A stretch of DNA of 63,588 bases, the filler included, from Actinomycetota bacterium (lineage in GTDB: Bacteria; Actinomycetota; CADDZG01; JAHWKV01; JAOPZY01): the NCBI GenBank assembly GCA_025963875.1. It is 5 parts of 5 records of this genome, joined end to end, with 100 filler letters (N's around TTAATTAATTAA, not from the genome) between each part and the next. Parts side by side here need not be neighbours in the genome. Positions count along the whole stretch, not along the records: positions 1 to 16,217 come from JAOPZY010000202.1; positions 16,318 to 32,595 come from JAOPZY010000252.1; 3 more parts are not named here. One strand, written 5' to 3'. Shown here in pieces: positions 15,001 to 18,000 of this stretch. A program made the position numbers. How positions within the stretch are numbered: the stretch's first letter is position 1; each line of letters begins with the position of its first letter.

Positions 15001-18000
15001 CGCTCTCCTCCTTCGCCCGGGGGGTCTTCGGGGCCTCGAGGGCCTCGTCCTCGTCCGGGCGCGCCGATGGGCCCGAGGGTGGGCTGAACTGTGCGGTCCC
15101 CTTCGCGGAGTGCCGCCCGTGGAGCGACACCGGCTAGAAGCGCTTCTCTTTGACCTTGGCCGCCCGGCCGACCCGGGAGCGCAGGTAGTAGAGCTTGGCC
15201 CGCCGCACGTCGCCGTGGGTGACGATCTCGAGCTTGGCGATCATCGGGGAGTGGACGGGGAACGTCCGCTCGACGCCGACGTTGTTGAACGAGATCTTGC
15301 GGCAGGTGAAGGTCTCACGGATGGCGGAGCCCTGGCGGCGGATCACCATGCCCTGGAACACCTGGATCCGCTCCTTGCCACCTTCGACGACTCGGACGTG
15401 CACCTTCACGGTGTCACCAGGGCGGAAATCGGGGAGATCCTCCCGCAGCACCGGACGCAAAAGGGCGTCGGTCTTCTCCATTGCTCCTCCTTAAGGCGGC
15501 TCTTGCCCGGATTGGCGCCCAGCATTGGCGCTGTGCACTCGCTTGTAGGCGCCGGCAGTCCTACTCGCGGCCGGTAAAGGGCCGGGAATTCGATGATAAC
15601 AGAGCCCGCCACTCGGCCACGAGGTCGCGTTCGTCGTCGGACAATTCGCCTGCTCTGATCGCAGCATCGACAAGGTCTGGCCGCTGCTCGAACGTCCGGC
15701 GGAGGCTCTGCTGCCGCCGCCACCTGGCGATGCGCCCATGGTCGCCCGACAGCAGGACCTCGGGGACCTTGAGGCCGCCGATCTCGGCGGGCCGCGTGTA
15801 CTGGGGGTACTCCAGGAGTCCACCCGTGAACGACTCCTCGGCCAGGGAGTCGAGGTTGCCCAGGACCCCGGGCACGAGGCGGGCGACGGCTTCGATGACG
15901 ACGAGCGCCGCCACATCGCCGCCGGCGAGCACGAAGTCGCCGATCGAGACCGTTTCCGCCCCCACGAGCCCGGCGACCCGGTCGTCCATCCCCTCGTACC
16001 GAGCGCAGATCACCACCACCTGCTCCTCGGCGGCCAGCTCGGCGGCAAATGGCTGGTCGAAGCGCCGCCCCGCGGCCGAGAGCAGCACGACCCGGCCGGA
16101 GGGCCGGCGGACGGCCTCCACGGCCGCGACGACGGGGCCCGGGGTCATCACCATGCCCGCTCCGCCTCCGAAGGGGGTGTCGTCGACCTTGCGGTGCGGC
16201 CCCTGGCCCCAGGCCCGNNNNNNNNNNNNNNNNNNNNNNNNNNNNNNNNNNNNNNNNNNNNTTAATTAATTAANNNNNNNNNNNNNNNNNNNNNNNNNNN
16301 NNNNNNNNNNNNNNNNNGCTCGTCGCGCATCAGGGCGAAGTTGTGCCCTGCCGAGTAGCTGTACAGGAGACCGTCGCCGTCCTCACCGGTCAGGTCCGTG
16401 AGCTCGGTGACCACGCCGGTGATGGGGCTGACGTGGTGTTCGAGGCGGCCGTAGGTGACCTCCGAATGGACGCTGCGGTGCCCTCCGTCGGATCGGCTCG
16501 CCTGGGGCCGGGACCGAAGGACCACCGGCTCCGGCGGCCGGCGGAACCCCGCGGCGTCCCCGCACCCCCCGCACTGGGGGCGCCGGGTGAGGACGTGGTG
16601 CCGGGTGACAAGGGTGCGGGTGTCCAGGGTGACGACCCTGCCTCCCAGCATCGACAGGTCGGCCGAGACAATGAACTTCGCCGCCTCGGATGCCGCGAGC
16701 TGCAGGGCCGCGTCGACGTAGGGAGCCAGGGCTGCCCGGGAGACGACGAGGGGCCGGGACACACCGGACCGGCGCTGGAGGAACCCCTCCATCTGGCGGT
16801 TGGACCTGAGGCGCTGGGCGAGGCACTCCCAGCAGCCGGTGACGCCCGGGGCGAAGATCGGCCCGAGCCACACCTGCCGCCCGACCGGCTTGACCGGCAT
16901 CCAGGGGCGCCCGGAGGCGAGCGCCAGGCGGTTCACCTCGCCCAGGCGATCGTCGAGGTAGTCGTCGACGAGCACGAGCTGCAACGTGGCGCCCTCCGCT
17001 CCGTTCCGGGCATCGTGGCCCGTCGTGGCGACCAGGGGCTCAAGCGCGCGGTTCATCGGGCCGGCGGGAACCGAGCCCAGCGAATGGACGGCGACTCGGC
17101 TCTCCTCGAGCCGAGTCGCCACCGTGCTTGCATCCATGTTGAGTCCGTGCCAGAAGGCGAGCGCCTCCGCCGCCATCGCATGGCCGCTCTCGAGCACGTA
17201 TCCCTGCTCCCGGAGCGTGGTGAGCCCGAAGAGCAGCTCGGGGAAGGGAACGCTCGGAGCGACTGTGCCGGCGAGCTCGGAGAGCGTGCGCGTCCCGTCG
17301 AGGTCGCTCGCAACGAGCGGGAGCGTCCGACCTGCGATGACGACGTAATCGGTTTCGTCGACCAGGACGACGTGGGTGTCGTCCACGACCTGTACGTGAT
17401 AGGAGGAGTTCCATTGCGGCTTGAGCAGCATCCCGTTACTCCGATCCACGTCCGTGCTCCGACGCAGCGTTTCGTGCTGGAGAGCTGCGGGCCAGCTCGG
17501 CCCGCGTCACGTGCAGGAGCAGCAGGGGCAGCAGCAGCAGCAGTACGAGGTGTCGGCGGCAGCCCCCTTGGCTGCGGCGGACGTCTGCAGTCCGAGCTGC
17601 GGCTGGGGAGGGATGTAGAGCACGTATTTTCCAGTATCGGCGCCCTTGTTCCAGGCGTCGACTGCGGCGTTGATGTCGCCGCTTCCGCCCATGGTCTGGT
17701 CGATCTGCACCGTCCCACCGGGCTTCACGGGAAGGCCGGCCTGGGCCAGCAACGTCGTCGGGTCCTTGAGCAGCTGGCTGAGGTAGTTCTTGTCCGTCCA
17801 GGCGTTCACCAGGACCTTCGAATAGTTGTGCGTAAACGTGGCGGTGTCTATAGGCATGATTTCACGTCTCCTGATCTCGAGGGAGGGACGGGCAGTGTTC
17901 TTGCATGCCCCGTAAACTCCAAAGATTTCACGGCCGCCGCGGTCGCTACCTCATGCGGAGCCGGCAGCGTTTATTGCTGCCACGATTCACCTCCCTTCCG

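Follow-up and report, generated by a model that had tools for sequence, protein, structure and literature searches.

A conserved cysteine-rich core on a nitrile-hydratase-like leader marks a putative azole-peptide locus in an actinobacterium

The genome of an Actinomycetota bacterium (assembly GCA_025963875.1) carries a real RiPP locus in which a 116-residue precursor, judged by homology to pair a divergent nitrile-hydratase-alpha-like leader with a near-all-cysteine core, lies next to the gene for a fused LynD/TruD-type heterocyclase. The locus falls within a large, unnamed and unstudied family and constitutes a natural-product lead, not a new kind of system. Together with an operon carried on contigs C193 and C199, the gene pair on contig C116 probably encodes the synthesis of a heavily heterocyclised peptide of the TOMM/LAP type. 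The window, that is the whole stretch of 63,588 nucleotides analysed, consists of five contigs with N spacers between them, and C116 occupies positions 16318–32595 (Table 1).

Table 1. Features of the precursor locus, in window coordinates.
Feature	Coordinates	Strand	Basis and remarks
Artificial N spacer at the C112/C116 junction	16218–16317		Rest of the YcaO domain beyond is missing from the assembly
Fused LynD/TruD-type heterocyclase, N-terminal 371 aa (winged-helix/E1-like leader-binding part)	16319–17431	−	TIGR03882; cut by contig end
Spacer between precursor and heterocyclase, 75 nt	17432–17506	−	7-bp G+C hairpin just 3′ of the stop; fold, alignment with relatives
Precursor gene, 116 aa + stop	17507–17857	−	ORF, homologues 74–92% identical, family profile search
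Predicted core peptide Y105–T116, YCCCCCPCCSCT	17510–17545	−	Sequence, relatives, synonymous codons, Pro-anchored family consensus
Flexible linker, residues 90–104 (GLQTSAAAKGAAADTS)	17546–17590	−	pLDDT <50 (residues 90–103); no Gly-Gly motif
Structured NHase-alpha-like (NHLP-clan) leader, residues 1–89	17591–17857	−	AlphaFold2, profile hits, VIA-align
Shine-Dalgarno AGGAGA	17867–17872	−	9 nt 5′ of the precursor ATG; read directly from the sequence
HTH (XRE-type) + TPR-like protein, 447 aa	18305–19648	−	Pfam HTH_31 E 4e-4, ANAPC5/TPR-like E 3e-5

The genome-wide survey's note had described a precursor of 116 residues with a Cys-rich 12-residue core, and both the open reading frame and the composition are confirmed. 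The precursor ends in ...AAADTSYCCCCCPCCSCT, with eight Cys, one Ser, one Thr, one Pro and one Tyr making up the last 12 residues. All five close homologues (74–92% identity) keep the pattern SYCCCC[C/T]PCC[S/T]CT, core positions being either invariant or S/T- and C/T-interchanging, and the linker is the variable part of their alignment. The core is also kept in a copy from a lower-G+C organism with 48% leader identity. Across six DNA copies, the core codons change synonymously while the residues stay the same (TGC/TGT, CCC/CCT, TCG/TCT/TCC and ACG/ACC), and these changes show that the peptide is under selection and the precursor real. A chance ORF is ruled out by the homologues together with the synonymous core changes. 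No Gly-Gly cleavage motif precedes the core in the precursor sequence, and no Peptidase_C39 domain is found in the assembly.

The leader is best described as a divergent nitrile-hydratase-alpha-like domain of the NHLP clan that falls below all curated cut-offs. AlphaFold2 models residues 1–90 with a pLDDT of 73–95 per 10-residue block, and the value drops below 50 for residues 90–103. The precursor scores 19.9 bits with the NHLP leader model TIGR03793 (cut-off 50.9, E 4.8e-4), 19.9 bits with the NHLP-Burk model TIGR03795 (cut-off 41, E 6.7e-4, aligning residues 11–95) and matches TIGR01323 below cut-off at E 1.3e-3, values that exactly reproduce those reported in the survey. The nitrile-hydratase-like assignment made there finds further support at the level of the family. 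The family profile matches nitrile hydratase alpha chains in the PDB at E 1.5e-6 to 1.9e-5 and 8tb1, the solved leader of MprE7, at E 2.6e-4, and 73 of 94 family members match TIGR03793 at E≤0.01. Among the 30 relatives shown, only P0108 (61.5) and P0143 (51.0) pass the TIGR03793 cut-off. Structure comparison likewise places nitrile hydratase alpha and 8tb1 at the top of the list, with VIA-align Z scores of 5.0–5.3 that represent middling similarity, since Z <8 may reflect a common arrangement. Foldseek against the PDB returns nothing at E≤0.001, the top row being 8tb1 at E 0.43.

A profile search recovers 333 cluster representatives of the precursor family, which has no family name in NCBIfam or Pfam and whose members, where looked up, are annotated 'hypothetical protein'. 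Among the best 150 of the 333 representatives, 104 have a Cys-rich tail, a count favoured by a census profile that included the core (rescoring with the leader only gives 66 of 105). A central Pro is common to 98 of these 104 tails, whose consensus is C4-5-P-C-C-x-C-T, and exactly five residues follow the Pro in 67 of the 98. A GG-type motif is present in 40 of 102 Cys-tailed relatives, and three of 94 family tails match the streptolysin S model weakly. Contigs as long as 14–36 kb carry Cys-tailed representatives. Judging from these sequences, the core is a conserved family trait and not an oddity of one genome. The caveat in the survey's note that similar cores may be on record was well placed, as similar and even identical cores are found. 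The motifs CCCCPCC, CCCCCPCC and CCCPCCCC are not printed in the main text of the literature searched, and literature searches found no characterised product for such peptides.

The distribution of the family was followed in several further searches. The source genome is the sole carrier of the precursor among six genomes of the same taxonomic family. A metagenome scan yields five short contigs (1.0–5.0 kb), none carrying the whole cluster, and tandem precursor copies occur in L011. A scan of genome contigs based on the precursor alignment produced 54 pattern matches and, from these, a single weak and unrelated hit (L012, 30% over 33 aa), the patterns having been drawn from near-identical sequences so that distant members could escape; a leader-only word search with P0012 gave two uninformative hits. 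The CCCCPCC pattern at the DNA level matches five of 401 genomes of the phylum, and the reversed control gives seven hits in six genomes. The four matching genomes other than the source look like chance or wrong-frame cases (Arg-rich frames, the antisense of a low-complexity gene), L039 alone having been checked ORF by ORF. The loci of the closest heterocyclase relatives (L022–L026) contain no precursor of the same family by the family HMM. The precursors of G322 lie outside its heterocyclase-relative locus, at a distance of 9 kb, and the G322 member matches the family profile at E 2.1e-36.

The neighbour of the precursor had been called a TOMM leader-binding or cyclodehydratase docking protein; this holds, and by homology it is more exactly a fused LynD/TruD-type heterocyclase whose leader-binding half lies on C116. 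Its open frame (16319–17449, minus strand) runs off the end of C116 at 16318 and contains a conserved ATG at 17429–17431, which puts 75 nt between it and the precursor stop in place of the 76 nt given earlier. With TIGR03882 the ORF scores 154.9 bits (E 2.1e-45), the cut-off being 36.9. In the metagenomic relative L009, an ORF 85% identical over the shared part continues into a YcaO domain (PF02624, E 1.4e-57), and the L009 protein aligns with LynD at E 1.3e-132 over residues 9–584 and with LynD, MusD and TruD at E 1e-130 to 1e-132 over the full length. The absence of YcaO from the assembly (94.6% complete) is borne out, with 0 matches, and the survey's guess that the domain lies in the gap appears right because the same ORF of L009 continues into it. 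The heterocyclase gene directly follows the precursor in all five loci with downstream DNA (the window, L007, L008, L009 and L010). The intervening spacer contains a local hairpin and is no more stable than its shuffles (z −0.06), so no claim is made for that hairpin. Directly upstream of the precursor on the same strand, and in the same order in the relative L008, lies the HTH/TPR-like gene, whose product is a candidate regulator of the cluster.

Contigs C193 and C199 most likely hold the rest of the operon. The gene content of C193 (2837 bp) is as the survey reported: it begins inside a SagB gene, followed by a B12-binding/radical-SAM gene and a P450 gene. ATGA start/stop overlaps join SagB to the radical-SAM gene and the latter to the P450 gene, and the oxidase is translationally coupled to the other two. 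An exact 127-nt overlap between C193 and the reverse complement of C199 restores a normal 460-aa P450; beyond it lie genes for a methyltransferase and an S8 protease. The C193 oxidase scores 171.8 bits with the SagB-type model TIGR03605 (cut-off 78.4), matches CyaGox at E 1.7e-59 and carries a ThcOx N-domain. Both enzymes belong to a cyanobactin-related lineage, the heterocyclase through LynD and the oxidase through CyaGox. In G285 and G322, which hold the two closest heterocyclase relatives, the gene next after the heterocyclase encodes an oxidase with 44% identity to the C193 SagB; the heterocyclases themselves are 40–45% identical to that of C116. In the complete genome G322, a family member, a fused heterocyclase, a ThcOx-type oxidase, transporters and a B12-dependent radical-SAM gene share one region. 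The only TOMM-type SagB of the assembly is that of C193, and the only TIGR03882 domain above cut-off is on C116. A SagB-like gene on C69 was rejected as partner, as its neighbourhood, with a Lon protease, is a housekeeping one and its identity reaches only 33% over 130 aa. By estimate, some 400 aa of heterocyclase and some 195 aa of oxidase are missing, which puts the gap at roughly 1.8 kb or slightly more. The smallest of the 273 contigs in the assembly measures 2506 bp, so a contig this short, had it bridged the gap, would not have been kept. The link between C116 and C193, which the survey had guessed from gene content and orientation, is thus strengthened by similarity, uniqueness, orientation, operon structure and contig size, while a physical join is not obtained: the left ends of the two contigs share no k-mer with any other contig, and no joining contig or read was found.

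The C116 pair could instead be a real RiPP locus whose true downstream genes are missing, with C193 and C199 forming a different RiPP cluster whose own precursor and YcaO gene went unassembled. The two contigs have no physical link in a genome that is 94.6% complete in 273 contigs, and the C193 radical-SAM and P450 genes are without a close counterpart in the G285, G322 and G766 clusters (the radical-SAM enzyme is only 21–23% identical to those of G322 and G766). The best family matches of these two enzymes are not peptide enzymes, the former being closest to the hopanoid methylase HpnR (218 bits against a cut-off of 650) and the latter to terpenoid oxygenases. Such an arrangement would however need two azole clusters of cyanobactin lineage, each broken at exactly the complementary place, in an assembly with a single above-cut-off leader-binding domain and a single TOMM-type SagB, and one cluster fits the orientation, the length of the gap and the 44% identities alike. 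We consider two separate clusters unlikely.

The sequences establish the gene, the family it belongs to and its conservation, and they identify both the heterocyclase and the oxidase. For a single cluster, the pathway that we infer, in its contig link, in each of its chemical steps and in the function of its product, would run as follows. Residues 1–89 would form a small nitrile-hydratase-alpha-like domain that serves as leader, followed by a floppy linker and the 12-residue core. The N-terminal half of the heterocyclase would bind the leader, and the YcaO half in the assembly gap would use ATP to convert Cys, and possibly Ser/Thr, to azolines. LynD and TruD are Cys-selective, which makes rings at Ser and Thr doubtful. 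The FMN-dependent oxidase of the CyaGox/ThcOx type on C193 would then oxidise azolines to azoles. The B12-dependent radical-SAM enzyme is probably a C-methyltransferase, and the P450 and the class I SAM methyltransferase would be further operon members. The subtilisin-like protease of C199 would cut off the leader, which is without a Gly-Gly site; it scores 61.6 bits with the PatA/PatG model TIGR03895 (cut-off 421), and its best solved relatives are subtilisins. The expected product would be roughly 12 residues long, the proline dividing as many as ten azole rings between two blocks, and a polyazole of this kind is a reasonable reading of the core and its enzymes.

The same core could also act mainly through its thiols, remaining free or only partly cyclised in a metal-binding or redox peptide in place of a fully aromatised polyazole. 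Eight thiols within eleven residues resemble metal-binding peptides, and the core varies remarkably little by NHLP standards, in both the presence of Pro (98/104) and the five residues after it (67/98). Against this stand the heterocyclase gene found after the precursor in 5/5 loci, a best partner enzyme that is an azoline oxidase, and S/T/C interchange at two core positions, which suits ring formation. This explanation seems improbable on balance and could be partly true alongside the polyazole reading.

A comparison with described systems helps to place the locus. In the Mpr system, the YcaO protein MprC and the FMN oxidase MprD install 2–6 azol(in)es on the NHLP-leader precursors MprE1–10 (PMC12455567). 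Similarly, the C116 locus would combine a long, folded NHase-like leader with an RRE-containing YcaO cyclodehydratase (Cys-preferring in Mpr) and, through C193, a flavin oxidase. Unlike Mpr, which in that account has ten precursors with varied cores and Gly-Gly motifs, it has one precursor with a conserved near-all-Cys core and no Gly-Gly. In the NHLP-Burk peptides (BMA_0021/0022 family), a leader some 108 residues long precedes a suffix of roughly 11; Gly-Gly is lacking, the neighbour is a fused cyclodehydratase-docking protein and tandem copies occur (Haft 2010, PMC2887384). That layout is echoed here by a 104-residue leader, a 12-residue core, the lack of GG and the adjoining fused heterocyclase; in contrast, the Burkholderia peptides have just one or two Cys at their ends and are accompanied by a Ser/Thr kinase (PMC2887384), and the present genome appears to be actinobacterial. 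For both enzymes, the nearest relatives of solved structure are those of cyanobactin pathways (LynD/TruD/MusD and ThcOx/CyaGox). The precursor differs from those of cyanobactins in being NHase-like and not PatE-like, the S8 protease falls below the PatA/PatG cut-off, and no macrocyclisation signals are seen.

The runs of adjacent ring-forming residues recall streptolysin S-type cytolysins and plantazolicin, the latter with two five-ring blocks. These have, unlike the present system, short unstructured leaders, separate C and D proteins and another range of organisms. As described in PMC4603692, cytolysin cores hold at least 10 contiguous heterocyclisable residues, and NHLP and cyanobactin cores are hypervariable. 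'Network 7' of Santos-Aberturas et al. 2019 comprises 11 Micromonospora NHase-like precursors ending SCACCCPCCCT (PMC6511847); the main text of that study says of these peptides that they have NHase domains and nothing more, and they are predictions only. The precursor family is the same, the core follows the same C-rich/Pro/C-rich/T plan, and the fused heterocyclase and oxidase are 40–44% identical. In contrast, Network 7 has a YcaO-TfuA pair (thioamidation), a second, Cys-free precursor, C39-ABC exporters and an acidic, export-type leader end (ELAEDELDSVVAG); no TfuA, stand-alone YcaO, C39 exporter, Cys-free precursor or acidic leader end was found in this genome.

Precursors of Streptomyces, Kitasatospora and Streptacidiphilus, assigned to the thiopeptide type by RODEO, end in SSCCCCCPCCSCT (supplement of PMC6511847). 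They share the identical CCCCCPCCSCT, there often as two tandem copies, and a B12-dependent radical-SAM gene in the cluster. They differ in a leader of about 44 residues of the GE37468 family, a split YcaO, lanthipeptide-type dehydratase parts, a nitroreductase and enzymes only 21–31% identical to those described here. The core is seen in two settings, one with an NHase-like leader and a LynD-type heterocyclase and the other with a thiopeptide-type leader, a split YcaO and lanthipeptide-type dehydratase parts.

These precursors, with a Ser before the shared core on GE37468-family leaders, also raise a thiopeptide-like macrocycle, in which a pyridine would form from Ser104 and Ser114 after their dehydration. 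The G766 locus encodes Lant_dehydr_N, Lant_dehydr_C, two YcaO proteins, a nitroreductase and a B12-dependent radical-SAM enzyme, and we take the spacing Ser104...Pro111...Ser114 to fit the thiopeptide register. Such a product is nevertheless very improbable: PF04738 and PF14028 have 0 matches in this assembly, where the cluster is cut, and none in the control genomes either, the G766 genes being detected; a scan of ten ORFs in the complete G322 cluster reveals no dehydratase of the lanthipeptide type; the window enzymes are 40–45% identical to the LAP-type enzymes of G285 and G322 against 21–31% to those of G766; and the second of the two Ser is not conserved, being S, T or C in relatives (Thr in L009, L010, L011, P0003 and P0004). 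Because the equivalent of position 114 is Cys in 62, Ser in 18 and Thr in 16 of the 98 Pro-containing tails, the conserved feature would be a ring-forming residue and not a dehydroalanine donor.

NHLP-type azole peptides are a known kind of which few have a known product, and a conserved rather than variable core is unusual among them, suggesting that a single specific molecule fulfils a specific task. More than 60 sequence clusters retain the Pro-centred Cys core. With about ten azoles predicted in twelve residues, the product would rank among the most densely heterocyclised ribosomal peptides. We raise only tentatively, as a possibility we hold to be less probable than its negation, that the C4-5-Pro-C4-Thr core is a module conserved for its function, joined on two or more occasions to leaders and enzyme sets unrelated to each other. 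If so, one widespread polythiazole scaffold would serve a conserved target or ligand, for example a metal ion, and the core would be a clear natural case of movement between RiPP classes. The same core on a thiopeptide-type leader offers a natural experiment on the recombination of leaders, enzymes and cores, and the family provides many sequence-diverse starting points for heterologous expression.

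The window (63.6 kb) joins five contigs of one draft genome with N spacers between them, and the locus described here lies at the left end of C116, the contig that occupies window positions 16318-32595. A precursor gene is followed there by a heterocyclase gene, and no biosynthetic gene was found on C116 further upstream than the HTH/TPR-like gene that precedes the precursor. Therefore, the precursor, or a point just before it, marks the start of the cluster, which extends leftwards into the gap. The hairpin that follows the precursor stop codon is also present in L008, a metagenome contig with a precursor homologue, and is altered in another, L007; the stability of the hairpin-bearing stretch as a whole is not above that of shuffles. 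The DUF11, Kelch-repeat, Amidase_3 and second HTH_31 genes of C116 have no obvious RiPP tie.

Locations of the features discussed in the text (window positions unless a locus is named)
Feature	Location	Strand	Remarks
Precursor gene	17507-17857	-	116 aa, C-terminal end AAADTSYCCCCCPCCSCT
Ribosome-binding site AGGAGA	9 nt 5' of precursor ATG	-	Seen in sequence
7-bp G+C hairpin GCGGGCC...GGCCCGC	17483-17503	-	Right after precursor stop codon, no T run
Heterocyclase gene start	75 nt past precursor stop codon	-	ATG kept in four relatives
HTH/TPR-like protein	Directly upstream of precursor, same strand	-	Family matches
DUF11 protein, 659 aa	21340-23319	-	C116
Kelch-repeat protein	24282-25775	-	C116
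Amidase_3 (N-acetylmuramoyl-L-alanine amidase)	27026-28015	-	C116
Second HTH_31 protein, 593 aa	28795-30576	-	C116
Tandem precursor copies	L011 884-1294 and 1255-1677		Two copies, organism with clearly lower G+C
Second NHase-like precursor	L035 (G322:C1:906001-926000) 6926-7306	-	Right after Cys-rich one
Open frame upstream of G285 heterocyclase	L022 (G285:C346) 8381-8875	-	C-terminal tail similar to G766 monooxygenase
G766 luciferase-like monooxygenase	L044 18038-19111	+	Pfam E 1.5e-55; just 5' of precursor
G766 precursor, 62 aa	L044/L045 (G766:C3:1-40000) 19115-19300	+	Window's exact core at end
C69 504-aa protein, two nitroreductase/SagB-like halves	L028 1857-3368	+	Above SagB model cut-off
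Class I SAM methyltransferase, S8 subtilisin-like protease, small membrane protein, HExxH membrane protein	After P450; C199, L046 (G000:C199:10283-20282)		

A word-based search returned five homologues of the precursor (74-92% identity), all metagenomic and unnamed, and each of these close homologues (5/5) ends in SYCCCC[C/T]PCC[S/T]CT. The gene was found on five metagenome contigs, and in all five loci with downstream DNA (the window, L007, L008, L009 and L010) the heterocyclase gene lies 3' of it. Among six DNA copies, synonymous changes distinguish the core codons (TGC/TGT, CCC/CCT, TCG/TCT/TCC, ACG/ACC) and leave the residues as they are; therefore, selection acts on the peptide. On L011, where leader identity is only 48%, a tandem pair resembles the pairs described for NHLP-Burk (TIGR03795): the two leaders are near-identical, the complete copy ends DSYCCCCCPCCTCT, and the second, cut by the contig end after SYCCCC, agrees in its visible core residues. 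As such, the precursor with a Cys-rich core proposed in the genome-wide survey's note is real, as the kept core, the synonymous codon changes and the kept gene order attest. The note's family scores, YcaO count and SagB assignment were reproduced as well, the exception being its precursor-heterocyclase spacing of 76 nt.

The window protein alone scores below all curated cut-offs for leader families (NHLP, TIGR03793, 19.9 versus 50.9 bits; NHLP-Burk, 19.9 versus 41 bits), as the note had reported. A profile of seven relatives matches nitrile hydratase (NHase) alpha chains (E 1.5e-6) and 8tb1, the solved NHLP leader of MprE7 (E 2.6e-4). An AlphaFold2 model from 94 family sequences predicts a folded, NHase-like leader, confident over residues 1-89 (three helices, strand, helix, strand) and disordered from residue 90 onward. 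Foldseek ranks 8tb1 and NHase alpha at the top, weakly (E 0.43), and VIA-align places the model in the range that the tool terms middling against both NHase alpha (Z 5.3, rmsd 4.3, 89 aligned) and 8tb1 (Z 5.0, rmsd 4.2, 65 aligned). Taken together, the scores, profile matches, model and structure comparison place the leader, as a divergent form, within the NHLP clan. With ~104 leader residues ahead of a 12-residue suffix and lacking Gly-Gly, the precursor is closest in layout to NHLP-Burk as described by Haft et al. (PMC2887384).

The 371 heterocyclase residues on C116 match the TOMM leader-peptide-binding domain TIGR03882 (E 2.1e-45, 154.9 bits, cut-off 36.9) before the open reading frame leaves the contig. 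Its homologue on L009, 85% identical across these residues, stays open through to a YcaO domain (PF02624, E 1.4e-57; TIGR03604, E 1.3e-42). From residue 9 up to the point where it is cut, this protein matches the solved structures of the cyanobactin heterocyclases LynD, MusD and TruD (E 1e-130 to 1e-132). Therefore, the 'docking protein' constitutes the N-terminal half of a fused heterocyclase of LynD type. No YcaO domain was found anywhere in the window's own assembly, and the earlier guess that it lies in the gap after the leader-binding gene proved correct, as the L009 frame shows. The precursor and the leader-binding half of the adjoining enzyme are established, as is the YcaO half in this close relative.

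A matching oxidase operon is present elsewhere in the genome, on contig C193 (2837 bp), whose left end lies inside a SagB-type dehydrogenase (171.8 bits versus 78.4) with a ThcOx N-domain, followed by a B12-binding radical-SAM enzyme (rSAM) and a P450; ATGA stop/start overlaps join the three, which therefore form one operon. Over 127 nt, C193 is identical at its right end to contig C199 in reverse complement, and the join closes the P450 frame at a normal 460 residues. For a precursor that lacks a Gly-Gly site, the S8 protease of C199 is a plausible candidate to remove the leader; it does not resemble PatA/PatG (61.6 bits versus 421), its best solved relatives being subtilisins. The 257-aa HExxH membrane protein has no family match. 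We consider it fairly likely that C116 and C193 are physically linked, as the note had guessed. C116 holds the sole above-cut-off leader-binding domain of the assembly and C193 its sole TOMM-type SagB. The two closest heterocyclase relatives in a 401-genome phylum sample, from genomes G285 (43-45% identity) and G322 (40-41%), each precede an oxidase 44% identical to that of C193. The C193 oxidase is nearest to the cyanobactin oxidase CyaGox (E 1.7e-59), which places it with the LynD-like heterocyclase in one enzyme lineage. From the alignments, ~400 heterocyclase and ~195 oxidase residues are missing (~1.8 kb); no contig in the assembly is shorter than 2506 bp, so that a bridging contig of ~1.8 kb would probably have been dropped. 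Against the link, no sequence in the assembly joins the two contigs, the best family match of the rSAM is the hopanoid methylase HpnR, far below cut-off, and the best matches of the P450 are terpenoid oxygenases. A SagB-like gene on contig C69 was rejected as a partner: it encodes a tandem nitroreductase (33% identity over 130 aa) beside a Lon protease, a DUF1905/OmdA protein and a further nitroreductase, with no RiPP context.

A profile search over 1.84 billion cluster representatives gave 333 matches at E<=1e-3 and 103 at E<=1e-10. Among the best 150 of the 333, 104 have at least five Cys within the last 40 residues (102 within the last 20), and 98 of these 104 carry a central Pro inside the Cys run. 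In these 98 tails the five pre-Pro positions are mostly Cys, the post-Pro order is C, C, C/S/T (62/18/16), C, T (48/98), and exactly five residues follow Pro in 67. Because the query profile included the core, the census is biased towards Cys-rich tails; with leader-only rescoring, such tails are still found in 66 of 105 representatives at 46 bits or more, and in 30 of 40 at 60 bits or more. The NHLP model matches 73/94 members at E<=0.01, only 2 of the 30 shown in full pass its cut-off, and NCBIfam has no model for the family. All names given in the clusters of ten representatives are 'hypothetical protein' except an ABC-transporter label (P0160); one source is a Nitrospinaceae MAG (P0165). 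The ESM Atlas cluster of the window protein comprises 53 'hypothetical proteins', from Actinomycetota where the phylum is known.

The caveat that similar cores might be on record was justified. The complete genome G322 encodes a 126-aa family member ending SCACCCPCCCT within a 17-kb region containing a fused heterocyclase, ThcOx-type oxidase, stand-alone YcaO, TfuA, B12-rSAM, MerR regulator and two ABC exporters, one with a C39 peptidase. A second precursor there, whose leader ends in Gly-Gly and whose core VSSEVDVNIVVIAIVI is hydrophobic and free of Cys, is followed by YcaO, TfuA and the 865-aa B12-rSAM, and may be the peptide that this cluster actually thioamidates. In Supplementary Dataset 4 of Santos-Aberturas et al. 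2019 (PMC6511847), the letter-identical Cys-rich G322 precursor heads 'Network 7', 11 Micromonospora peptides adjoining TfuA; of these peptides the main text mentions only nitrile hydratase domains.

The thiopeptide validation set of that supplement includes Streptomyces, Kitasatospora and Streptacidiphilus precursors with a short GE37468-family leader, often in two tandem copies, ending SSCCCCCPCCSCT, the window core letter for letter. Nocardiopsis precursors there end CCSCCSCCPCCCCS and a Couchioplanes precursor CCCCTCSCCCCPCG; therefore, Cys-run/Pro/Cys-run cores recur on several thiopeptide-like leaders in this set. The coding pattern for the core occurs in 2/401 genomes, of one large-genome genus (control 0). 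In one, G766, whose cluster is of thiopeptide type, the precursor neighbours a B12-rSAM, a luciferase-like monooxygenase, two YcaO proteins, Lant_dehydr_C, a nitroreductase and Lant_dehydr_N, with no Pfam match in ~4.5 kb of the cluster (L045 3127-7635). These enzymes are only 21-31% identical to those of the window and the leader is of GE37468 type; thus a single core is associated with leaders of two unrelated types and with two sets of enzymes. The main texts of the searched literature print none of CCCCPCC, CCCCCPCC or CCCPCCCC, and no characterised product for such a core was found there.

By analogy with YcaO heterocyclases, SagB/ThcOx oxidases and the Mpr system (PMC12455567), the heterocyclase would bind the leader and, with ATP, turn the eight Cys, perhaps also Ser114 and Thr116, into azolines, which the oxidase would aromatise. 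The rSAM, P450 and methyltransferase would then modify the scaffold, the guesses being C-methylation and hydroxylation at Tyr or Pro, and the subtilisin-like protease would cleave within AAADTSY. The predicted product has Tyr, five thiazoles, Pro and up to five further azoles. The S/T/C interchange at two core positions among relatives agrees with ring formation and argues against a thiopeptide-style dehydroalanine at position 114.

We hold with good confidence that the main reading, a heavily heterocyclised RiPP precursor with a LynD-type heterocyclase, is correct. The kind of system itself is not new: NHLP-type azole peptides are known, a 2019 list already contains part of the family, and public tables include the identical core. 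Three points are new: a large unnamed family of precursors is recognised whose poly-Cys/Pro core is conserved, this family is paired with enzymes of the cyanobactin lineage, and the same core recurs behind a leader of thiopeptide type.
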